A DNA stretch of 64,000 bases. Source: Chiloscyllium plagiosum (lineage: Eukaryota). Of this stretch, positions 3,904 through 64,000 are shown piece by piece; position 1 is the first letter of the stretch, and each line of letters opens with the position of its first letter. The stretch lies in assembly GCF_004010195.1 (NCBI RefSeq), contig NC_057718.1, forward strand, positions 103,215,276 to 103,279,275. The letters are read 5' to 3'. Under the pieces are notes generated by a model. That model did no database searches. It was not told where the DNA came from and was given only the letters and a program-made list of their open reading frames with translations. The translations under genes and the position numbers were made by a program.

Positions 3904-4420
3904 CCAGGTCTCCACTACTGGGCATTGCTGTCTCCAGGTCTCCACTACTGGGCATTGCTGTCTGTCTCCAGGTCTCCACTACTGGGCATTACTGTCTCCA
4001 GGTCTCCACTACTGGGCATTGCTGTCTCCAGGTCTCCACTACTGGGCATTGCTGTCTGCAGGTCTCCAGTACTGGGCATTGCTGTCTCCAGGTCTCCACT
4101 ACTGGGCATTGCTGTCTCCAGGTCTCCACTACTAGGCATTGCTGTCTCCAGGTCTCCACTACTGGGCATTGCTGTCTCCAGGTCTCCACTACTGGGCATT
4201 GCTGTCTCCAGGTCTCACTACTGGGCATTGCTGTCTCCAGGTCTCCACTACTGGGCATTGCTGTCTCCAGGTCTCACTACTAGGCATTGCTGTCTCCAGG
4301 TCTCCACTACTGGGCATTGCTGTCTGTCTCCAGGTCTCCACTACTGGGCATTGCTGTCTCCAGGTCTCCAGTACTGGGCATTGCTGTCTCCAAGTCTCCA
4401 CTACTGGGCATTGCTGTCTC
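3904..4420. repeat. 30-bp minisatellite, about 17 copies
   Basis: Unit ccaggtctccactactgggcattgctgtct with occasional +4 (gtct) and -1 variants. Confidence 0.95.
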
Positions 4421-4925
4421 CTGTCACTGTGTAGCAAGTCTGATGATGCTTCACTTCATAAGGCCCAATCTACAAATGATACTGGAAACTCAACATCACA
4501 TTGCATTCCATTATTCGTTTCAACTTATGCTTAAAGTTCTATCTAGAATCTGAATTATAGAAAGGCATCAGCCTTAGCTCTATTTATCCGGATTCTTTTC
4601 ATCCTGTGCAGAAAGCAGGGCTCCATCCATGTAGATATATTACCCTCCAACTTTACCTTTTGTTGGATCAGCATTCATTGCCCAACCCATGAGAAGGTGA
4701 ATGGTTGCAGTCCATATGCTGTAGGTACAGCAATGATGACATTAAGGAGGCAATTTCTGGGCTTTACCCCAGCCTCTTGTATAAAACAGATTAGGCATGG
4801 CACTTGATTGAATCTCTTTGAAGACCCAAGTTACTGTTTGGTGGAATGGGTAAATAGGTGGCAGTTGGAGTACACTGGGCAAAGTCAGAAGTCACATGAC
4901 ACTAAGTTACGGTCCAATAGACTTA

Positions 4926-5103: not shown

Positions 5104-5203
5104 TATTTGAAATCATAAGGTTTTGGAACTCTGCCCGTTCATCAAGTGACTTCAGTGTGACTTCTGACTTTGTCCACCCCAGTCCAATACTGGCATTGAA
5201 GTA

Positions 5204-5407: not shown

Positions 5408-5956
5408 TACCTTGGTAGAAGGAGCATGGAGAGACAGTGAACAACAGAGGGTACAACTCGAAAGGAGCGGATGGCCTTGTACATGGGCATAAGTCACCAA
5501 AAGTTACAGAACAGTTTGACAGAAAATCCTTGACTTTATTAATGGAGGCATGTTAAAAGCTGTTGTGTTGGAAATTCACATGATATTTACATTTCACTGG
5601 CTAACCTGGGAGGGCCAACTCTGATTTATTTTCCAATTTACATCAGTATTTCCCACTGTTTACCATATTAGAAACATAGAAATTAGGAGCTGGAGTCGGC
5701 CATTCAGCCCTTCAAGCCTGCCCCACTGTTCAGTATGATCATAATGGATCATCCAACTCAGTCCCCTGTTCTCTGTTTCTTCCCCTACTCTTTGATCCCT
5801 TTAGCCCTAAGAACTGTATTTAACTCCTTCTTTAAAGCATGCAATGGGTTGGCCTCAACAGCTTCCTGTGGCAGAGAATGTTGAGCAGTATTTGTACTCT
5901 GATGTCGGGATAGGAAGATGAATAAATGCTCCATCTTGTGACACACACAGCCTATC

Positions 5957-6148
5957 TTCCCAGTGGGAGTTGGGGAACACTTCAGCGGTCCGGGACATTC
6001 GACCTTGGACCTTCAGGTGACTATCCTCCAAGGCGGACTTCGGGACAGGCAGCAGTGAAAAGTGGCTGAGCAGAGGCTGATAGCTAAGTTCGGTGCCCAG
6101 AGGGAGGGCCTCAACTGAGACCTTGGGTTCATGTCACATTACAGGAGA
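5957..6148 (+). pseudogene. GIY-YIG endonuclease C-terminal fragment (Penelope-like), two in-frame stops
   Basis: Manual translation, in frame with ORF-track 6131 MSHYR; motifs PVGxxEHF, H..DL.V.IL, EQRLI.KF, GLN.D.GF. Confidence 0.8.
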
Positions 6149-6990
6149 CCACCATTGCACTACACACACACGCACTCCTATATATACACGGACACACATA
6201 TACACAGGCACACACACAGACACTCACACACACCCTTACAGACACACACACTCCCACACTCACACAGGCATCCTCTCAGAGACTTAGACCACTCTACACT
6301 CATACACACACATATACACTCTCTCTCACAGACACACACAACCCCCACCCCAAACACGCACACACTCCCACACTCACAAATGCACCCCCTCACAGACTTA
6401 AGACACTCTATACTTACACACATATACACTCTCTCTCACACTCACAATCCCCAACCTAGACAGACAGACACACACACACAGACAAAGACCCACATGCACA
6501 CATATAAATTGTGCGGTGAATTTGTACTTGCAGAGTTACATTGTACTTTGCTCAAAAACTGCATGAATTTATGTAAAGTTCTGAGCTCCAAAACTGCATG
6601 AATTCATGTAAAACTCCCTTATCTCACTTTTTAGATTAGAATCAATCTAAACATCATAGCATAGACAGAGAGCACAGGGGGCTAACACCTTCAACATATT
6701 GTCTAGCTAACATCCATTGTTACAGCTAACCTGAGAATGCAACTTTAATGCAACTTTGTGATTTACACATGAAAGAAGTGAAACTGTCATGGTGTTCAAA
6801 CAAATGAAAGACTCAACAATCAAGGTATTTTTCAATGTATAATTTCAGTTACATCACTGTAAATTTTTGCTATAAATTCTGTGCCTTAGTATTGTATCCG
6901 CCACTATGACCTGGTGAAGGAGCAGCGCTCCGAAAGCTAGTGTGCTTCCAATTAAACCTGTTGGACTGGTGTTGTGTGATTTTTAACTTT
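5957..6990 (+). mobile_element. Penelope-like retroelement 3' remnant: GIY-YIG C-terminus, CA-rich 3' UTR, hammerhead-bearing terminal repeat (family A)
   Basis: Frame from 5957 reads FPVGVGEHFSGPGHSTLDLQVTILQGGLRDRQQ*KVAEQRLIAKFGAQREGLN*DLGFMSHYR. It resembles the PLE GIY-YIG end (HF...H, E, GLN), and both stops are TGA, consistent with CGA decay. It is followed by a CA-rich UTR and by CTGGTGAAGGAGCAGCGCTCCGAAAGCTA at 6911-6939. Confidence 0.85.
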
Positions 6991-7153
6991 ATCCTCCCTA
7001 TGCTAGGCAATGCTGAGGGACACTCAATGCTCCTACTCATCCATCCATACCCCTAATCCATCTATTACCCACCTCTGGAGAGAAAATGCTGAGGGACTCT
7101 TGTAGTGTATTGATAGTGTCCCTACATCTGAGCTAGGCAGGCCTGAGTTCAAG

Positions 7154-7280
7154 GAGTAAGTGAGGACTGCAGATGCCGGAGATCAGAGCTGAAAATGTGT
7201 TGCTGGAAAAGCGCAGCAGGCCAGGCAGCATCCAAGGAGCAGGAGAATTGACGTTTCGAGCATGAGCCCTTCCTCAGGAA
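7154..7280 (-). mobile_element. Family B single-arm element
   Basis: TSD tgagttcaag at 7144-7153 and 7281-7290; interrupts a tRNA-like SINE. Confidence 0.85.
7250..7277 (-). ncRNA. Minimal hammerhead motif, family B
   Basis: Reverse complement: CTGAGGA A GGGC TCAT GCTC GAAA CGTC. Confidence 0.75.
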
Positions 7281-16432: not shown

Positions 16433-16585
16433 ATAAATGGACTTGCACTGTCTTTGAAAACAATGGGTTGAGTTTAAGTGTGTGAATATTGCCTCAGTGG
16501 ACATGGGCTGGAGTGAGTCATGCTGACTGGGTTTGGCCTGGTTTCAGTTGAGGACACTGATCTGAGACCACAGAAACAATAACAA

Positions 16586-17060
16586 GATGTTGTGAAACTT
16601 GACAAGGTTCTGAAAAGATTTACAAGGATGTTGCCAGAGTTGGAGAATTTAAGTGAGATGGAGAGGCTGAATAGACTGGGCTATTGGAGGCTGAGGGGTG
16701 GACTTATAGAGGTTTATAAGATCACGAGGGGCATGGATAGGATAAATACGCAAGGATTTTTCCTCAGGGTAGCGGATTCCAAAACTAGGGTTAAGATGAG
16801 AGGGGAAAGATTTAAAAGGGTCGTAAGGGGCAACTTTTTACAGAGGATGGTGAGTTTTTGGAATGAGCTGCCAAAGGAAGTGGTCGAGGCTGGTACAATT
16901 ACCACATTTAAAAGGCATCTGGATGAGTACATGAACAAGAAGGGTTTAGAGGGATATGGGCCAAATACTGACAAATGGGACTAGATTGGGTTGGGATATC
17001 TGGTCAGCATGGGCGAGTTGGGCAAAGGGTCTGTTTCTGTGTTGTACATCTCTGTACTCT
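16586..17060 (+). mobile_element. CR1/HER1 3' fragment; partial duplicate at 16062-16230
   Basis: ORF 16592-16984 KRFTRMLP..RLRGGLIEVYKI..WNELP. Confidence 0.9.
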
Positions 17061-17184
17061 ACCTAGCAACTTTAATATAGTGAGCTATCCCAGGGCATAC
17101 ACAGGAATAATCATCAGACAGTGTTTGTAATTTACCTGCATAAGGAGAAGTCAAGACAAGTGATCAAAAACATGGTTAGAGATG

Positions 17185-17338
17185 ATTTGGAGATGCCGGT
17201 GTTGAACTGTGGTGGACAAAGTTAAAATCACACAACACCAGGTTATAGTCCGACAGGTTTATTTGGAAGTACTATGTTTCAGAGCGCTGCTCCTTCATCA
17301 GGTGGTTGTACTCCCGTTGGACTATAACCTGGTGTTGT
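17185..17338. mobile_element. Family A palindromic PLE-derived element
   Basis: Same consensus; TSD gttagagatg at 17175-17184 and 17339-17348. Confidence 0.85.
17273..17301 (-). ncRNA. Minimal hammerhead motif, family A, stem III variant
   Basis: Reverse complement: CTGATGA A GGAGC AGC GCTCT GAAA CATA. Confidence 0.6.
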
Positions 17339-17448
17339 GTTAGAGATGGTAGAGTAAGGGCAAATTGCTGAGTCAGCAATTCAGAGGCACAGGCTAATGA
17401 ACTGGAGGTATATCAACTCATGGTGAGATTTAAATTCACTTGATAAAT

Positions 17449-20050: not shown

Positions 20051-20224
20051 TGTAAATTTTTGCTATAAATTCTGTGCCTTGCAATTGTGCCCTCCACAAC
20101 CACCTGATGAAGGAGCGACGCTCTGAAAGCTAGTGCTTCCAATTAAACCTGTTGGACTATAACCTAGTGTTGTGTGGTTTTTAACTTTGTACACCCCAGT
20201 CCAACACCGGCATCTCCAAATCAT
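20051..20224 (+). mobile_element. Family A PLE 3' end (UTR, hammerhead and tail)
   Basis: tgtaaatttttgctataaattctgtgcctt matches the PLE remnant at about 6858-6888, followed by the hammerhead and the tail ...ccagtccaacaccggcatctccaaatca. Confidence 0.85.
20104..20132 (+). ncRNA. Minimal hammerhead motif, family A
   Basis: cac CTGATGA A GGAGC GAC GCTCT GAAA GCTA gtg; flanking cac/gtg can form stem I. Confidence 0.75.
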
Positions 20225-21775: not shown

Positions 21776-22550
21776 CTCACTCATGGGACAAGGCTGGCCC
21801 AGCATTTATTGCCCGTCCCTAGTTGCCCCCTTGAGATGATGGTGGTGAGCTGTCTTCTTGAACCATTGCAAGCCGTCTGCTGTAGGTTGACCCACAATGT
21901 TGTTAAGGAAGGAATTCCAGGATTTTGACCCAGCGACACTGGAGGAATGGCAATATATTTTCATGATGTGGAGATGCTGGTGTTGGACTGGGGTGGACAA
22001 AGTCATGTGACAAAGGAGCAGTGTTCCGAAACCTTGTGATATTAAATTCACCTGTTGGATTTTCACTTGGAGTCATGTGAGTTCTGACTTTGATATATTT
22101 CCGAGTCAAGATGGTGAGTGGCTTGGAGGGAAACTTGTAGGGGGTGGTGTTCCCATGTATCTGCTGCCCTTGTCCTTCCAGATGGAAGTGGTTGCAGGTT
22201 TGGAAATTGCTATCTGAGGATCGATGGTGAAGTTTTGCGAGGTATCTCGTGGATGTTACACAATGCTGCTATTGAGTGTTATTTGTGGAGGGAGTGGATG
22301 CTTGTGGATGTAGTGCCAATCAAGTGGTCTGCTTTGCCCTAGATGGCATTAAGCCTCTTGAGTGTTGTTGGAGCTGCACTCATCCAGGCATGTGGGGAGC
22401 ATTCTATCACACTCCTAATTGGAGTCTTTTAGATGATGGACAGGCTTCAGGGAGCCAGACGGTGAGTTACTCTCCATCATATTCCTAGCCTGCTCTTTGT
22501 AACCGCTCTATTTATATGGCAAGTCCAATTAAGTTTCTGGTCAATGGTAA
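21776..22550 (-). mobile_element. 3' fragment of another LINE-like family; related at 38750-38945, 43378-43515, 47885-48110, 58790-59220
   Basis: Shared gattttgacccagcgacactg..ggaa..gcgatatatttccaagtcaggatggtgagtggcttggagggaaacttg and gcatttattgccc..ccctagttgccc; family not confidently named. Confidence 0.6.
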
Positions 22551-29995: not shown

Positions 29996-31409
29996 GAATC
30001 GCAGGGCTTATAAAATGGGAAAGAACAAATGTTAATAATTACAAAGATATAAATATTTTTCATAACTCAGGACATCCCACAGCAAATTACGGTTAAAGAA
30101 ATACTGTAGTTTCTGTTGTAATGTAAAGAACACAGCAGCCAATTTGAGCACAGTAAGATCCCACAAACAGTCATGTGATAATGACCAGTTATTCAATTTT
30201 GTAATGTTTCTTGAGGGATTAGTATTGGCCCCTCAGAGATGGGGATATTCCTATTAAGGAATAGCCACCACCACCACCACCCGCCTCCCCCACACCCCTT
30301 GCCACACGTTCTTCTTATATTCACCTGTGGCCTTAACCTGAGGAAGGGGCTAACCTCTGAAAGTTTGTGATTTCAAATAAACTAGTGACTATAACCCAAT
30401 GTTGCATGATTTCTGAATTTGTCCATCCCAGTCCAACACTGGCACCTCCACATCATGATCTTAACCTAACTTTTCACTCAAAGGACAGCACCTCTGGCTA
30501 TACTGCACAACCCCAGTTCTGAATGTCTAGATTTTCACACTCAAAGGTTTCCAGAGGGGGCTTGAACCCACAACCTTACAATTGCAGCAGATACAAATGA
30601 TACGCACTGAGCCAAAGCTGACTCAAGCAAGCTGTTCAAGCATTAAAAACATAGAAAAATAGCCTTGAGGTCAGATTTCAGAACGGGCTTGTACAAACAC
30701 GACCTGTCTTAGAACACACCCTATCTCCAATGGAATGAAACCTGGCGAGTTCAATAATGAATCAGCAGTCATGAATATAATTCACCACATGGTCTATTAG
30801 ACAGCGAGGTATGCATTACTTGAAGTTGCAACTGAGCTGCTCAAAGGATGCTCGTGACTAAGAGAATGGTAGGAATCCCTATGTTAGCACATAGTTAGCA
30901 TTGCAGCTAATGTAATTAGTGCATTGTCTTGGCATTATAAAGTCATAGAATCAGGCAATGATGCTGAACATGAGGAGGCCATTCACCCCACTATGTTTGT
31001 GTTGCCACATAAGAAACTTTAGTTAGTGATTTTCAAATGGATCCATATCCTCAAAACAGGCAGAAGTGGATGATAACTTGCTATTGATGTGTAGGTAGGA
31101 GGTTTGTTCGACCTCGTTTGATGGCCCATTAAACTTAGGAGAGATATAAAACCAGCCCCTGATTCATTAATGCCTTATATTAATCTTTGTTACAATCAAA
31201 TATATAGTTTTACAAAATACCAGATTGGAATCTTTTGCTGGAAAAACAGGTTTTACAATGAAAAGACCAAGAGGAATGCAGGGTGGTTTCATATTTTGAA
31301 GATTTCTACCATAATTATCAAACTTTAACTTGCATTCTACAATCTTCAGAGAGTTTTAAAAATGTTTTTCTTGGGATGGGTCTACATTGACAAGGTCAGC
31401 ATTTGGTTG

Positions 31410-35842: not shown

Positions 35843-36334
35843 TTTAGTGGTCTCACTAAAGCTCTGTATTCCTGTAGTAAGACAAGCCTACTTCTGAACT
35901 CGATTTCTTTTAAATTGTTCACAGGACATGAGCAACACAAACTAGGTTAGCATTTTTTGTCCATCAGAGAGTTAAGAGTCAACCATGTTGCTGTGGGTCT
36001 GGAGTCACATGTAGGCCAGACCCTGGGAGAGGTAGGAGCTTTCTTTCCCTCAGAGCATCAGTGAACCATGGTCAATATTTGATTCTTAAAACCAGATTTT
36101 TATCAAATTCAAACTTCAACATCTGCCATTGGCAGGATTTGAACCCAGGTTTCCAGAAGGTTTCATGGGATTAATAGTTCACTGGGCCAACATTTCCCCC
36201 ACTGCAAGCCCACTTAGACCAAAGACCATTGTACCATTTGCCTTCCTAATATCCTGCTGAATTAACTCTACTGTCTTAATTTTACTTTCAAAGCTGTTTG
36301 GAAAAGGGATCTCATATAGACTATATATTTGATG

Positions 36335-36541
36335 ATGTGGAGGTGCCGGTGTTGGACTGGGGTGGACAAGGTCAAAAATCCCACAGTACCAGGTTGTAGT
36401 CCAACAGGTTTATTGAATACTATAGGTTTTTGAATGCTGCTTCTACAGTAACACCTGATGAAGGAGCAGCGCTCCGAAAGGTAGTGTTGTCCAATAAACC
36501 CATTGGACTATAACCTGGCGCCGCGCGATGTTTGACCTTAC
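36335..36541. mobile_element. Family A palindromic element
   Basis: Inverted arms; TSD atatttgatg at 36325-36334 and 36542-36551. Confidence 0.8.
36455..36483 (+). ncRNA. Minimal hammerhead motif, family A, stem III variant
   Basis: cac CTGATGA A GGAGC AGC GCTCC GAAA GGTA gtg. Confidence 0.65.
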
Positions 36542-37092: not shown

Positions 37093-37724
37093 GCTCCAAA
37101 ATATGTTGATTCCTTTCATTCCCATAAATGCTCTGTCCTTTGCTGACTGTTGCTTAATTAGTTCCCAGCCTCTAGCAACCCTCCATACTTACATTCTCCA
37201 TGGTTTCACAAGATTCTGGGTGTTGAGAAGTTAATTGTCAGAAGTCACACGACACCAGGTTATTGTCCAACAAGTTTATCACAGGCTTTCAGAGTACAGC
37301 TCCTTCATTAGGTGATGGTGAAAACTTGTGATTTTAGATTAACCTGTTGGACTGTAACCTGGTGAAATGTGCCTTTTGACTTTGTCCACCCCAGTCCAAC
37401 ACCAGCACGTCCACATTGTAATTTGATTGGGAAATAGTCAGTCAAGCAGAACGAATATCATTCCTGATTCTGGGCATGTTCTTTCTATATTAGTCTGGAT
37501 TCTCTTCTGCTTCATATCAACTCAGGACAGATATCAAGGTTTCTTAATATACACATGATGACCAGGGATCAGAGCTCCCTACACCAATTCCAACCTTCTA
37601 GCAGACTCTCTATCATTACATGACAATCAAGGTCATTGTCACATCACAGCTTACCTCTGGGTCATCCACATATTCATTAAAACTATTCCCAACATTCTTG
37701 CTCCCTTCACCACCCCCTTCCAAA

Positions 37725-40581: not shown

Positions 40582-41200
40582 GTCATAGAGATGTACTGCA
40601 TAAAAACAGACCCTTCGGTCCAACCCGTCCATGCCGACCAGATATCCTAACCCAATCTAGTCCCACCTGCCAGCACCCGGTCCATATCCCTCCAAACCCT
40701 TCCTATTCATATACCCACCCAAATACCTCTTAAATGTTGCAATTGTACCAGCCTCCACCACTTCCTCTGGCAGCTCATTCNNNNNNNNNNNNNNNNNNNN
40801 NNNNNNNNNNNNNNNNNNNNNNNNNNNNNNNNNNNNNNNNNNNNNNNNNNNNNNNNNNNNNNNNNNNNNNNNNNNNNNNNNNNNNNNNNNNNNNNNNNNN
40901 NNNNNNNNNNNNNNNNNNNNNNNNNNNNNNNNNNNNNNNNNNNNNNNNNNNNNNNNNNNNNNNNNNNNNNNNNNNNNNNNNNNNNNNNNNNNNNNAAATG
41001 CCTTCTTCACTATCCTATCTACCTGCGACTCCACTTTCAAGGAGCTATGAACCTGCACTCCAAGGTCTCTTTGTTCAGCAACACTCCCTAGGACCTTACC
41101 ATTAAGTGTATAAGTCCTGCTAAGATTTGCTTTCCCAAAATGCAGCACCTCGCATTTATCTGAATTAAACTCCATCTGCCACTTCTCAGCCCAATGGCCC
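40582..41200 (-). mobile_element. CR1/HER1 3' fragment spanning an N gap
   Basis: ORF 40657-41202 WAEKWQMEFNSDKCEVLHFG. Confidence 0.9.
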
Positions 41201-41293
41201 ATCAGATTTTAAACTTTCTCTATAGATTTCCCCAGGTCGACTTTGGTGTTCTGCTGCACAAATTTCTGATAGACAGGTCCCTTTCAGAGAGCT

Positions 41294-45480: not shown

Positions 45481-45665
45481 CGAGTGTACAGAACAATCTG
45501 GGTTTGTTCAATATATCGCATCAGTTGCATGAAACTGTGATCTTTTGCTATAAATTCTGTGTCCTATGATCCTGCCCCACTAGCTACCTGATGAAGGAGC
45601 AGCGCTCCAAAAGCTAGTGCTTCCAAATAAACCTGTTGGACTATAACCTGGTGTTATGTGATTTA
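45481..45665 (+). mobile_element. Family A PLE 3' end; hammerhead with GAAA changed to AAAA
   Basis: ttttgctataaattctgtg ... CTGATGAAGGAGCAGCGCTCCAAAAGCTAGTG ... ctataacctggtgtt. Confidence 0.8.
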
Positions 45666-52660: not shown

Positions 52661-52674
52661 TGTGAACATCCGAG

Positions 52675-52956
52675 TTAAAAATCACACACCACCAGGTTAT
52701 AGTCCAACAGGTTTAATTGGAAGCACTAGCTTTCAGAGCGCTCCACCGTGCCGCCCACTACCACCGTGCCGCCCACTGCCACCGTGCCCGATTGTGAACA
52801 TCCGAGTTAAAAATCACACACCACCAGGTTATAGTCCAACAGGTTTAATTGGAAGCACTAGCTTTCAGAGCGCTGCTCCTTCATCAGGTGGTTGTATAGC
52901 CTAGTGTTGTGTGATTTTCAACTTTGTACACCCCAGTCCAACACCAGCATCTCCAA
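52675..52956. mobile_element. Family A element with a locally duplicated left part
   Basis: Consensus match; TSD-like attgtgaacatccgagt / attgtgaatatctgagt. Confidence 0.8.
52859..52887 (-). ncRNA. Minimal hammerhead motif, family A
   Basis: Reverse complement: cac CTGATGA A GGAGC AGC GCTCT GAAA GCTA gtg. Confidence 0.75.
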
Positions 52957-54293
52957 ATTGTGAATATCTGAGTGTGAGTGCACTGTCCTAGTAACTGGGC
53001 AGAGTGTCATTAGGGAACAAAGGAGAGGCTTGGGTGTTTTCAAATTAATCGTGAGCATCTGGTCACTAGAAGTGCAGATTTTTCTGAGTGCTAGACACTG
53101 CTTTGTTGAACACATTGCCACTTACTGCTGACGTTCTGGAGATCACAGATCCATTCCCCTCATTGGGGAAGTGGTAAAGGCTGTTCTTTCTGCTGGTTGA
53201 CAGAGAACCACATGAAATTCCTGATTGCGAATCGTCACTTTCCACGTGTTATGGCTCTGGATATGATATCGACATCATAAATCATTCTCATCATTGCATT
53301 GGCTGTGCACATTGGCTGATCTGATGCTTCAATGGTGACTAGAAACATGGACAGCTGCTTGGACGAAAGATGCAGCTGGTGAGAATAACAACTGCTGGGG
53401 AACGACCCTGTGCCTTTGCCAGGTGACAGGACATACAAATAGCCACTGTTTATTTATCTTCTCGGAAGCTGCATCCCCTACCTTCTCCCACCCTCCCCCA
53501 CTTGCTGCTTTGGGATCATTCTGTACCAGGTACTCTCCAGCAGAGCCTCCCCAGTCTCCTTTAGCTGCCGTGCACATGGTCAGTCACAAGGAGGTGCCAT
53601 GAGGTTTGTGGGATATGAAAGGGGATTGACAGAGTAGACATGGGGCAATACAGACCCAGGGGTCATAGTTCCCAGGTGAGGGGTAGCAGATTTTATAACA
53701 CAGATGAGGAGGAATTACTTCCCTCAAAGGATTGTGAATCTGTGGAATTCACTGCCTCAACATGGGGAATTAGGCCATTCAACCGATTGAGTCCGCTTCA
53801 CCATTCGATCATGGCTGATATATTTCTCAACCTCCATTCTCCTGCCTTCTCCCCAGAACATGTCAGCCCCTTACAATCAAGAACCTATCTATCTCTGTCT
53901 TAAAGACACTCAATGATGTTTTATGGGATGAGAATGTTGCTGACTGAACCAACATTTATTGCCCAGAGGGCAGTTAAGAGTTAACCACCTCACTTTGTGT
54001 CTGGAGTCACATGTAGGCCAGGTAAGGGTGGCAGTTTTGTTCCCTGAAGGACATTAGTGAACTAGATGGGTTTTTCCTAACAATCAACACTGTCATCATT
54101 ACACTGGTAAAGATTTTACTAAGTTCAAATTATACCTGCCATGGCAGGATTTGAACCCAGGTTCCCAGAGTCAAGAGTCTAGTGATAACACTATTAGGTC
54201 ATTGTCTCCCATACCTTTGGGCACCACAGCCTTCTGTCGCAATGAGTTTCATGGATTGACCAACCTCTGGCTGAAGAAATTGCTCCTCATCTC

Positions 54294-54492: not shown

Positions 54493-54670
54493 TCTTCATC
54501 TCGGTAAATTTAAATAGTGTTGGGGAGAAGGTTTTCAACGAAGCCATTCTGGGGAATGGACAGGGAAGTGGAGTCGAGGCCAAGATGGGATTAGCCACAA
54601 TCGTACTGAATGACAGAGCATAATTGATGGGCTGAATGGCCTCTTCCTGTTGCTGGCTCACGTGTTTTAA

Positions 54671-54860
54671 GATTTGGAGGTGCCGGTGTTGGACTGAGGT
54701 GGACAATGTTAAAAATCACACAACATCAGGCTATATTCCAATAGATTTATTTGGAAGCACTAGCTTTCAGAACCACCTGATGAAGGAGCAGCGCTCCGAA
54801 AGTTAGTGCTTCCAAATAAACCTGTTGGACTATAACCTAGTGTTGTGTGATGTTTAACTG
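54671..54860. mobile_element. Family A palindromic element
   Basis: Inverted arms around the hammerhead at 54777. Confidence 0.8.
54777..54805 (+). ncRNA. Minimal hammerhead motif, family A
   Basis: cac CTGATGA A GGAGC AGC GCTCC GAAA GTTA gtg. Confidence 0.7.
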
Positions 54861-54950
54861 TGTCTTTATAAGATATGGCCCTGACGTGTCCAGCTTTCCT
54901 GTCCTCTCTTGCCTCATTGTGGGGAGTTCACTTGTTACTGCTCAACACCA

Positions 54951-55321
54951 GGTGAAAGTGAGTACTGCAGATGCTGGAGATCAGAGTCAAGATTGTAGTG
55001 GTGCTGGAAAAGCACAGCAGGTCAGGCAGCATCCGAGGAGCAGGAAAAACGACATTTCAGGCAAAAGTTAAAAATCACGCAACACCAGGTTATAGTCCAA
55101 CAGGTTTATTTGGAAGCACTAGCTTTCGGAGCGCTGCTCCTTCATCAGATGATTGTGGCGAATGTGTGATTTTTAACTTTGTACACCCCAGTCCAACACC
55201 AGCATCTCCAAATCATTTCAGACCCTTCATTAGGAGTCTGCCCGAATTTTGCCAGAAATGTCCATTCTCCTGCTCCTCAGATGCTGCCTGACCTGTTGTG
55301 CTTTTCCAGCACCACTCTAAT
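54951..55321. mobile_element. Family B palindromic element containing a nested family A element (about 55064-55213)
   Basis: Outer TSD-like cttgttactgctcaacacca / cttgctgctgctcagcatca; inner TSD catttcag at 55053-55060 and 55214-55221. Confidence 0.85.
55120..55148 (-). ncRNA. Minimal type I hammerhead ribozyme motif, family A, core intact
   Basis: Reverse complement: CTGATGA A GGAGC AGC GCTCC GAAA GCTA; perfect 5-bp stem II, palindromic AGCT stem III, CUA cleavage triplet. Confidence 0.8.
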
Positions 55322-61128: not shown

Positions 61129-61270
61129 GTGTCTGATGCTGATGGAGTCCTGATGGAGTCCATAATCTTATTAAAAACAGCAAAGTTTGTAATGATCTAT
61201 GTCTTATTGTAAAATTGCTATAGTAGAATGAAAATACAATTTCACTCAAAAAAACCTTTCTCAACATTAT

Positions 61271-61436
61271 GATTTGGAGACGCCATTATTGGACTGGGGT
61301 GTACAAAGTTTAAAATCACACAACATGAGGTTAAAGTCCAACAGGTTTATTTGGAAGCAGGAAGGAGCAGTGGTTCGAAAGCTAGTGCTTCCAAATAAAC
61401 CTGTTGGACTATAACCTGGTGTTTTGTGATTTTTAA
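61271..61436. mobile_element. Family A palindromic element
   Basis: Inverted arms; 15-bp TSD ctttctcaacattat at 61256-61270 and 61437-61451. Confidence 0.85.
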
Positions 61437-62281
61437 CTTTCTCAACATTATCTGAAATTACTGCTTAACTGAGCTGCTCTCATTTAAGTCAATTTATCAA
61501 TAAATCATTACCAACATTTAGCAACAAAGAAATGAACAACAAGACTTTCTTCACGAACCTGAAAAGGAAATGTGCAACTAAAGTGAGCATTTGTTCTGTC
61601 AAAGGTAAGAGAGTGGAAATGCTACAGAAAGATAAGGAAATGGCACATGTATCAAGACAGGTTTTGTGGCTGGAATTCTCGTTCCAAGGTCAGAGATAAA
61701 TGCAATCTGGGAGGAAGTGCGCCAAAACGTCAGATTTTTGGTTTCAAGGGTGAAGGGGGGTGGGGTCGTAGCTGGGTGGAGGCAGTCTTAAGGTTTGGAA
61801 TCTTGCCTTGGTGCCCTGGCATTCTTTCAAGACAGGGAAAAGAAGACAATGAAAACCAACATTGGCCAACATCTCCTCACCCCTCACACTCTCTCCATGC
61901 CCCCTTCACTCTGACTCATGCCATCTTATGACTTAAAACCACCACTCACACTCCGTATCTTTCCAGCCATCTACCATGTTAATTACACCCCCTACACTAA
62001 CTTCTTGCCAATTCACAGCAACACATGTCCAAACCAACAAACTTTACTTTAACACCTTCCATGACAACTTCATGTATTTATGAATTCACTACTTCAAAAA
62101 AGAAATACTCTCATTGATAAAAAAAATCTATTCACTGCAGTGAACTTCCTGTAATACCTTGCAAAAATAAAATTGGATTCATTTTTCCACTTCAAAGAGA
62201 CTAAAATCATGTCAATCAAGCTATGAATTGAAAGGCACCCCACTGTAACAATGGAAAGTTATGAAATTATCAAAGAGTCAA

Positions 62282-64000
62282 AGTTCTAAATTGGAGAAAG
62301 GCTAATTTTGACAGTGTTAGGCAAGAACTTTCGAAAGCTGATTGGGGGCAGATGTTCGCAGGTAAAGGGACGGCTGGAAAATGGGAAGCCTTCAGAAATG
62401 AGATAACGAGAGTCCAGAGACAGTATATTCCTGTCAGGGTGAAAGGAAAGGCTGGTAGATATAGGGAATGCTGGATGACTAAGGAAATTGAGGGTTTGAT
62501 TAAGAAAAAGAAGAAAGCCTATGTAAGGTATAGACAGGATAGATCGAGTGAATCCATGGAAGAGTATAAAGGCAGTAGGCGCACACTTAAGAGAGAAATC
62601 AGGAGGGCAAAACGGGGACATGAGATAGCTTTGGCAAATGGCATTAAGGAGAATCCAAAGTTTTTACAAATACATTAAGGACAAAAGGGTAACTAGGGAG
62701 AGAATAGGGCCCCTCAAAGATCAGCAGGTTTGCCTATGTGTGGAACCGCAATAGATAGGGGGGATACTAAATGAGTATTTTGCATCAGTATTTACTATGG
62801 AAAAGGACATGAAAGATATAGAATGTAGGAAATAGATGGTGACGCCTTGAAAAATGTCCATATTACAGAGGAGGAAGTGCTGGATGTCTTGAAATACATA
62901 AAAGTGGATAAATCCCCAGGACCTGATCAGGTGTACCCTAGAATTCTGTGGAAAGCTAGAGAAGAGATTGCTGGGCCTCTGGCTGAGATATTTGTATCAT
63001 CAATATTCACAGGAGAGGTGCCAGAAGACTGGAGGTTGGCTAACGTGGTGCCACTGTTTAAGAAGGGCAGTAAAGACAAGCCAGGGAACTGTAGACCGGT
63101 GAGCCTGATCTCAGTGGTGGGCAAGTTGTTGGAGGGAATCCTGAGGGACAGGATATGCATGTATTTGGTAAGGCAAGGACTGATTAGGGATAGTCAACAT
63201 GGCTTTGTGCGTGGGAAATCATGCCTCATGAACTTGATTGAGTTTTTTGAAGAAGAGGATTGATGAGAACAGAGTGGTAGAATTGATCTATATGGACTTC
63301 AGTGAGGCGATTGATAAGGTTCTCCATGGGAGACTGGTTAGCAAGGTTAGATCTCACGGAATACAGGGAGAACTAGCCATTTGGATACAGAACTGGCTCA
63401 AAGGTAGAAGACAGAGGGTGGTGATGGAGGGTTGTTTTTCATACTGAAGGTCTATGACCATTGGAGTGCCACAGGGATCGGTGCTGGGTCCACTACTTTT
63501 TGTCATTTACATAAATGAGTTGGATGCGAGCATAAGAGGTACAGTTAGGAAGTTTGTGGATGACACCAAAATTGGAGGTGTAGTGGACAGCGAAGAGGGT
63601 TACCTCAGATTACAATGGGATCTTGATCATATAGGTCAATGGGCTGAGAAGTGGCAGATGGAGTTTAATTCAGATAAATGCGAGGTGTTGCATTTTGGGC
63701 AAGTAAATCTTAGCAGGACTGATACACTTAATGGTAAGGTCCTAGGGTTGCTAAACAAAGAGACCTTGGAGTGCAGGTTCATAGCTCCTTGAAAATAGAG
63801 TCCTAGGTAGATTGAATAGTGGAGAAGGCATTTGGTATGCTTTCCTTTATTGGTCAGAGTATCGAGTACAGGAGTTGGGAGGTCATGTTGCAGCTGTACA
63901 GGACATTGACTAGACCACTTTTGGAATATTGTGTACAATTCTGATCGGAAGGATGTTGTGAAACTTGAAAGGGCTCAGAAAAGATTTTCAAAGATGCTGC
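62282..64000 (+). mobile_element. CR1-clade LINE (HER1-like) ORF2 reverse transcriptase region; 5'-truncated, frameshifted, runs off the window end
   Basis: ORF pieces 62352-62678, 62847-63263 (KSPGPDQVYPRIL, VPEDWRLANVVPLFKKG, PGNCRPVSLISVVGKLLE, SQHGF), 63238-63447 (YMDFSEAIDKV) and 63454-63792 (GVPQGSVLGPLLF, KFVDDTK) are CR1 RT motifs in the correct order, separated by frameshifts and stops. Confidence 0.95.

Follow-up and report, generated by a model that had tools for sequence, protein, structure and literature searches.

The locus at 5957-6990 raises the question of how an endonuclease-like frame with two TGA stops, a long untranslated region (UTR), and a hammerhead motif with a mutated core are related to the short hammerhead-bearing repeats (family A) scattered over the window, by which we mean the whole 64-kb stretch of DNA analysed here. 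We consider it very probable that a Neptune-type Penelope-like element (PLE) inserted here in 5'-truncated form, leaving a dead copy, that family A is the terminal repeat (pLTR) of that element, and that its copies arose from fixed reverse transcription starts with extension of both target strands.

Read from 5960, the frame is as the first-pass annotation had quoted it, with in-frame TGA codons at 6056-6058 and 6116-6118. Positions 5962-6145 (+) encode the C-terminal ~59 codons of a PLE GIY-YIG endonuclease, in which both late His, the Glu, and the Gly-x-Asn are present. The domain had been called decayed; what is left is indeed the C-terminal half of a PLE GIY-YIG domain, but truncation rather than decay has removed its GIY and YIG strands together with the catalytic Arg and the first His. 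Using a profile of 25 distant proteins, at least two of which (P0041 and P0058) have no endonuclease in the part used and contribute only noise, we obtained 19.8 bits for the fragment versus a best score of 4.2 among 2000 shuffles (1233 of which were given a score); a match by chance is excluded. A profile match, as anticipated at first pass, was thus found with distant reverse transcriptase (RT) plus endonuclease proteins but not with Pfam or NCBIfam, in which the fragment matched 0 families each. In a six-frame search of the 64-kb window the fragment was the sole match above threshold, with no other part of the ORF and no RT found there. The Pfam GIY-YIG model gave no match in seven of seven close relatives, and among the more distant relatives RVT_1 and GIY-YIG were both detected in four of the five scanned.

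A search among longer proteins yielded 12 relatives from 18 candidates, nine of them named shark proteins, in keeping with a source close to carpet sharks. To the closest, P0002 from Chiloscyllium, the fragment is 88% identical; to P0006 from Heptranchias, an RT-plus-endonuclease protein (RVT_1, E 5e-9), it is 67% identical. The same-genus protein P0013 carries the RT YIDD motif and this endonuclease together. The single ORF of endonuclease-positive (EN+) PLEs, with RT followed by a C-terminal GIY-YIG domain, is therefore present in P0006 and P0013, and the earlier statement that PLEs encode both enzymes holds for the homologues of the fragment; the focal copy is truncated and has no RT. Across 61 relatives, the Cys, Tyr, Gly, Arg, and His are invariant, and the CxxxxCxxC linker and CCHH residues are present. 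The full CX2-5CxxC linker and CCHH set of Neptune elements is thus seen in the relatives, with only the two late His lying inside the focal copy; we assigned the family to Neptune from this pattern, compared by eye with Fig. S2 in the available portion of Craig et al. In a fold comparison of the predicted structure of relative P0004 (mean pLDDT 89.8), the top 10 matches were all GIY-YIG domains of I-TevI and UvrC, the best with a TM score of 0.82 by target and E 0.015 and none reaching E 0.001, and a PDB sequence search with the full-length relative P0016 gave 0 matches. As a separate observation, in-frame stretches of this PLE ORF occur in the NCBI shark gene models P0003, P0007, P0008, P0010, P0011, and P0032, which include PPP1R12A-like, XRCC5, epsin 2, and a GPCR-domain protein and may reflect either exonization or annotation artefact.

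Positions 5962-6989 are one 5'-truncated insertion of this shark Neptune-type PLE with a 9-bp duplication at its flanks, as our analysis confirmed. The insertion contains the C-terminal ~59 codons of the endonuclease, the ~750-bp UTR, and a minimal hammerhead. The left target-site duplication, at 5953-5961 (+), has last bases that overlap the element sequence (microhomology) and is identical at 8 of 9 positions to its partner at 6990-6998 (+). Because 5953-5961 is target duplication, the element starts at 5962-5969 and not at 5957 as first annotated, and the extra 'VG' of the earlier translation is a junction artefact. When both junctions were held fixed, a 9-mer duplication of this quality arose in 135 of 19455 pairs of random positions (0.7%); unanchored matches are frequent (12.7% in a wide null), and at 6022, within the element, the right flank has an equal 8/9 match. 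Family depth in three DNA runs goes up at ~5968 and stops near 6990, with single-locus depth on either side; family contigs match from 5968-5986 onward, and the flank at 5895-5945 is at single-locus depth. The insertion is probably old and shared, since contigs of organism A cross both focal junctions; among the 15 joints listed of 373, none was an empty site.

Scans of metagenome, viral, and prokaryote contigs found no full-length PLE copy with the repeat upstream of its ORF, and the terminal-repeat pattern had 0 loci in viral and 0 in prokaryote contigs. One of 76 candidates in the metagenome scan was a relative of the same ORF end, 49% identical; it lies at 141-1068 of contig L001, is likewise followed by CA-rich sequence, and ends before any hammerhead. 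The focal copy places family A in its PLE family, but it is related to the short copies as a dead sibling and not as a parent. The first-pass proposal of a parent element survives insofar as the family could be identified through homologues with RT in the same ORF, but the copy is 5'-truncated and dead, with the RT and the GIY/YIG half missing.

The 3' UTR spans 6146-6870 (+), with a CA-rich region of 114-bp period at 6192-6446, and is high-copy family sequence except where repeats were skipped. Its length, put at ~750 bp in the first-pass annotation, agrees with the ~765 bp between the ORF end at ~6145 and the hammerhead core. The mutated core noted there, CTGGTGA, starts at 6911 on the same strand as the ORF frame, and the recurring UTR end was found again before the cores at 20104 and 45588. 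Hereafter, offsets are counted from the first base of the core (0). Since A is present at 6914 in ~95% of the family depth in DNA run X2, the G is decay of the focal copy. The minimal type I hammerhead occupies 6906-6944 (+) and comprises the mutated core (6911-6917), stem II (6919-6931), GAAA (6932-6935), and a palindromic AGCT; cleavage is predicted after 6939, and the focal copy has a 2-nt insertion in stem I. As in EN+ PLEs, the hammerhead lies in the terminal repeat in ORF sense. Pairing was found in 87.8% of 123 cells, a level reached in 17 of 500 shuffles, with slid controls at 27-61%. Covariation was weak, with one compensatory pair and 88 of 500 shuffles as high. Rfam gave 0 matches at gathering score and three chance matches by E-value, leaving the hammerhead undetected, and none of five folded terminal sequences was much above shuffles in stability (z from -1.5 to +0.08). 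Family A is supported as the pLTR of this PLE family. A second hammerhead repeat family, with core CTGAAGA/CTGATGA and another stem II, starts ~160 bp past the insertion, at 7152-7280 (-); counting 21 more, it has 22 matches in the window, including several inverted pairs, and is probably the end of another PLE family.

Fifteen family A units lie in the 64-kb window, 10 as inverted pairs and five as single arms; the inverted pairs, two thirds of all units, had been left out of the first-pass model of 3'-terminal truncation. Among the single-arm copies, that at 20051-20224 (+) has a TATA box, an Initiator (Inr)-like motif, an intact core, and a ~36-bp tail, and that at 45492-45664 (+) has a TATA box, a more diverged UTR end, and no tail, with no junction duplication found. 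The inverted units are at 17182-17340 (tail arm on the minus strand from -8, a short plus arm, and a ~10-bp duplication), 52668-52958 (a duplicated tail-less arm, a main arm from -8, and a 12-bp flanking repeat), 54665-54863 (plus arm from ~-9), 55064-55216 (minus arm from -10), 61267-61440 (a 15-bp exact duplication), 1709-1856 (a 13-bp duplication), and, in diverged form, 36328-36539; other diverged units lie at 461-548, 5104-5196, 21959-22090, 30336-30456, and 37246-37416. All 10 inverted units have exactly one tail arm, ending at +109 to +124, and another arm ending at +86 or earlier, where arm ends were entered by hand and one diverged arm aligned only to +41. The one-sided 30-40 bp tail of EN+ PLEs was thus found in 10 of 10 inverted and two of five single-arm units and is absent from the focal copy. 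Flanking duplications scoring at least 10 were present in five units versus 0.7% in the null, so that inverted, 5'-truncated copies with target-site duplications, another EN+ PLE trait, are also represented; no convincing upstream partner was found for the 45.5-kb copy and none for the 0.46-kb copy.

Three further details of the units were observed. The unit at 52668-52958 has three copies of its flanking repeat with an 18-bp tandem repeat between them. Tails end in ATCAT (20216-20224 and others), and a following G, present in a few copies, would give an ATG that is possibly an ORF start as in other PLEs. At window positions 1798 (-) and 61359 (-), arms begin at +31 and +30, beside the predicted cleavage site (+29); these are two of 24 arms, and their position is possibly due to chance.

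The first-pass annotation had described the copies as a nested series from ~1 kb down to ~150 bp. We observed a different distribution: one unit extends to about -950, two extend to -53 and -96, and the other 12 have their ends in the interval from -10 to +20, with no copy among the 15 units ending between -96 and -949. The analysis used 24 arms, with three long arms extended with longer references (-949, -96, -53) and one boundary read by eye. Thirteen of these arms end at +5 to +80, a loss of ~0.9% per nt; because they end downstream of -2, early termination is also common. Eight of the 11 arms that reach -2 end within -10..-2, where 0.078 per arm is expected (binomial tail 2e-7), and with young arms only the count is 4/7 (p 0.001). 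The clustering may be an artefact of where alignments end, as four of the eight arms concerned are diverged (70-82% to the 6.9-kb copy). Family depth, which is not copy number, is roughly flat over the endonuclease and UTR and then steps up 6.8-, 2.9-, and 6.5-fold in the hammerhead bin of the DNA runs, and contigs that are loose before 6909 (298, 223, 201) share ~10 family letters before disagreeing.

A TATAAA box at 6871-6876 (+) is present in all three window copies that reach this far. It is followed at 6900-6905 (+) by an Inr-like BBCABW, a motif we take to be the Inr consensus, with a +1 predicted from sequence at 6903, which places it 32 nt downstream of the TATA and 8 nt upstream of the core. 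The young short copies have their 5' ends at this predicted +1, four of their arms starting at -8, -8, -9, and -10. Each of the three long copies has its TATAAA at -40 or -39 and just one Inr-like match, whose +1 falls at -8 or -9; TATA precedes the sole Inr match by 30-32 nt in all three versus 4 of 56 other TATAAA sites with this spacing, although the three copies are related and count as about one event. In RNA run X21, which is 3'-biased, no position was listed at which many molecules begin. We rejected a splice acceptor as the origin of the -8 boundary, as there is no acceptor AG at -8. The boundary at the predicted start site favours an origin of the short copies from the 5' rather than the 3' copy of the repeat.

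At the other end of the repeat, RNA run X21 revealed a used poly(A) site. This run is one poly(A) library, chosen by species label, the search for runs with the sequence having listed no RNA run, of which ~2% was read and 3355 reads were aligned. A poly(A) signal, ATTAAA at 6951-6956 (+) and AATAAA in most sister arms, is followed at 6967-6989 (+) by the family poly(A) site, a GU-rich element, and the tail-less 3' end; there, the loose end in RNA is poly(A) and the loose end in DNA is family sequence. In 986 reads, untemplated poly(A) directly follows 6967, just past the ribozyme at ~+57. The family site is 13 nt past AATAAA/ATTAAA and ahead of the GU-rich run, and the focal copy itself has lost it through a 7-bp deletion; only 69 reads are at least 99% like the focal copy. 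One orientation dominates near the repeat (depth 1252 vs 187), with the sense inferred from the poly(A) side. In all 12 arms matched, A accounts for only 3-4 of the 20 genomic nt past the site, and DNA contigs continue there as family sequence, which makes internal priming unlikely. The poly(A) reads may stem from a few host transcripts and include duplicates. Separately, 294 reads with loose ends join other sequence at 6755 and 345 share one variant spacer (6883-6901), which suggests that a truncated copy forms the end of a small number of strongly expressed transcripts. As in a true LTR, the poly(A) site lies inside the repeat (986 RNA reads, one run). The terminal repeat therefore has a U3-R-U5-like anatomy, composed of a used poly(A) site and a start site predicted from sequence.

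The observed homology, boundaries, two fixed 3' ends, one-arm tail, clustered 5' ends, and poly(A) site used at ~+57 can be brought together as follows. Insertion would be carried out by the endonuclease and reverse transcriptase of the element itself, a high-copy shark PLE. Two fixed internal sites, at ~+84 and ~+120 relative to the core, would serve as alternative starts of reverse transcription, yielding copies without or with the tail, and extension from both target strands would yield the inverted pairs; internal starts and two-strand extension are taken by analogy from published work on another PLE. If the RNA extends from -8 to +57 of the next repeat, RT could start only near its 5' end, and RT begun there would run off the RNA at the TATA/Inr start after 90-130 nt, leaving short copies. 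That most short copies are such run-off products, ending at a predicted start ~8 nt before the core, is the account we tentatively favour, and we regard it as a little short of an even call. Long copies would then require one of two routes: read-through RNA, which is the standard view, or a jump across the redundant segment at -8..+57, a route we think unlikely.

On a bolder reading, to which we give little credence, the pLTR would work like a true LTR, with a strong-stop-like cDNA that sometimes jumps via R so that the repeat is regenerated without tandem read-through. Polyadenylated RNA would begin at -8 of the upstream repeat and end at ~+57 of the downstream repeat, and target-primed RT would give a 90-130 nt strong-stop-like cDNA that is usually integrated unchanged, producing the swarm of short family A copies. 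Occasionally, the cDNA would jump through the ~65-nt redundant segment, which holds the whole hammerhead, to the RNA 3' end, and copying would go on into the UTR and ORF to give copies like 5962-6989.

The 5' cluster could also have arisen, with no start site, if RT copying the 3' repeat paused at the folded hammerhead (helix I) and fell off or snapped back. This structural stall is a possible but doubtful explanation: the 5' strand of helix I, at -5..-1, adjoins the cluster and two arms start by the cleavage site at +30/+31, but helix I is only 2-5 bp, 0 of the 5 folded sequences stood out from shuffles, and the young arms end 3-5 nt past the helix, at the predicted +1. Somewhat less probable, in our judgement, is the model of the first-pass annotation, in which cDNA begun in the downstream repeat of read-through or tandem RNA is truncated at random, giving continuous sizes. 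Random truncation is the standard account of PLE insertions in the available part of the literature (10.1101/2021.04.23.441226), and the 13 arms scattered over +5 to +80 and the two copies that stop at -53 and -96 are of the kind it predicts; the sharp cluster at -10..-2, the empty interval between -96 and -949, and the flat depth followed by a step argue against it. Improbable to a greater degree is the idea that the short units propagate themselves as a non-autonomous, retrozyme- or MITE-like family and share no more than ancestry with the PLE. The common 5' end and high copy number would suit such a family, and the accessible part of a preprint derives non-LTR retrozymes from PLE ends (10.64898/2026.07.22.740005), but the inversion junction is different in every unit, no tandem array of hammerhead units was found, and units from -8 onward have no TATA box. 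A non-LTR retrozyme as such was rejected, as 41 tandem-repeat rows held no tandem hammerhead array and the duplicated arm at 52.7 kb has no core.

A remaining alternative concerns the frame and not the boundary. The first TGA (6056) falls at a near-invariant Arg position among 61 sequences, and we infer that it arose by CpG decay; at the second (6116) relatives have Arg, His, or Trp, and ~98% of the family depth is unlike the focal copy at 6118. Recoding of these two in-frame TGA codons as selenocysteine in a functional frame, for which the available description of some Naiad PLEs offers a precedent, can be virtually dismissed, since neither position is Cys in relatives, the family differs at 6118, and the catalytic half is missing. 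A selenoprotein-encoding PLE of Naiad type was likewise rejected, the combination of in-frame UGA at a conserved Cys and an N-terminal endonuclease not being found here.

Taken as a locus, this dead and truncated copy belongs to a known class of retroelement and is ordinary; its value is the anatomy it exposes. Transposon-derived poly(A) sites occur in mammals, and the working poly(A) signal described here suggests that these copies can terminate host transcripts in sharks. Were the pLTR indeed to function as a true LTR does, poly(A) signals would be spread over both strands genome-wide by the inverted units. The copying of PLE terminal repeats becomes testable from one assembly plus 5'-end RNA data in a family such as this, whose poly(A) site is mapped, whose start is predicted, and which has two fixed RT starts and very many short copies. 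The window also contains, at 3904-4421, a tandem array of 17 copies of a 30-bp unit (93% matches), and open frames at 62265-63974, 40657-41208, and 16583-16984 that resemble LINE fragments and are presumably of CR1/L2 type. The PLE class, the hammerhead, the tail, and the inverted pairs were already known. In the openly accessible literature, Repbase and Dfam aside, we found nothing published about this shark family, polyadenylation sites in PLEs, or PLE strong-stop cDNA; the part of the retrozyme preprint available (10.64898/2026.07.22.740005) covers one chondrichthyan, and its supplements may list this family.

As described in the available portion of Craig et al. 2021 (PMC8557442 / 10.1101/2021.04.23.441226), Neptune-clade EN+ PLEs share with the present family the C-terminal GIY-YIG domain after RT, the full CxxxxCxxC linker and CCHH (here in the relatives), and 5'-truncated, inverted insertions with a one-sided 30-40 bp tail. 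Neptune is paraphyletic in that work, a search of its one supplement file with five shark terms gave no match, and the TATA/Inr plus poly(A) module seen here in the pLTR is absent from that portion of its description. Like PAc, the Poseidon element of Anolis carolinensis (Frangieh et al. 2024, PMC11167929), the shark family has a hammerhead near the repeat end, two internal RT starts bounding the tail, and no RNA ends at the ribozyme site; in that study, the tail lay between two internal RT start sites in vitro and both target strands were cut and extended. Poseidon, in contrast, has no Zn-linker, and in PAc the hammerhead contains the ORF start; the part of its description available mentions neither a poly(A) site nor run-off at a cap site. 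The minimal hammerheads of metazoan PLEs, as far as the accessible text of Cervera and De la Pena 2014 (PMC4209133) describes them, resemble the present one in the unpaired base before stem II, the G-type closing pair, the 5-bp stem II, the short helix I, the palindrome in place of helix III, and the predominance of solitary truncated copies, and differ in that the focal core is mutated and a used poly(A) signal lies here ~10 nt past the cleavage site. In Penelope of Drosophila virilis and the Adineta vaga PLEs, according to the accessible parts of PMC2377424 and PMC3846280, transcription starts inside the upstream repeat, as is predicted here. The A. vaga pLTR also has a putative TATA and Inr, inverted pLTRs, 8-10 bp duplications, and a tail, and inverted pairs with a one-arm tail and flanking duplications are the canonical PLE arrangement (PMC3846280); D. 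virilis Penelope differs in its TATA-less promoter with an intron, there being no acceptor AG at -8 in the shark repeat.

The last comparison is with retroviruses and LTR elements. RNase H was not detected in Pfam scans of the relatives, and the shark element would be target-primed rather than tRNA-primed, with no integrase and with strand transfer only proposed. In the retroviral U3-R-U5 arrangement, the promoter lies upstream of a terminally redundant segment that ends at the poly(A) site, and priming occurs just downstream, near the RNA 5' end. The shark pLTR resembles this arrangement, and the minus-strand strong-stop DNA it gives rise to, in the order of predicted promoter, redundant segment, and poly(A) site and in the proposed priming near the RNA 5' end.
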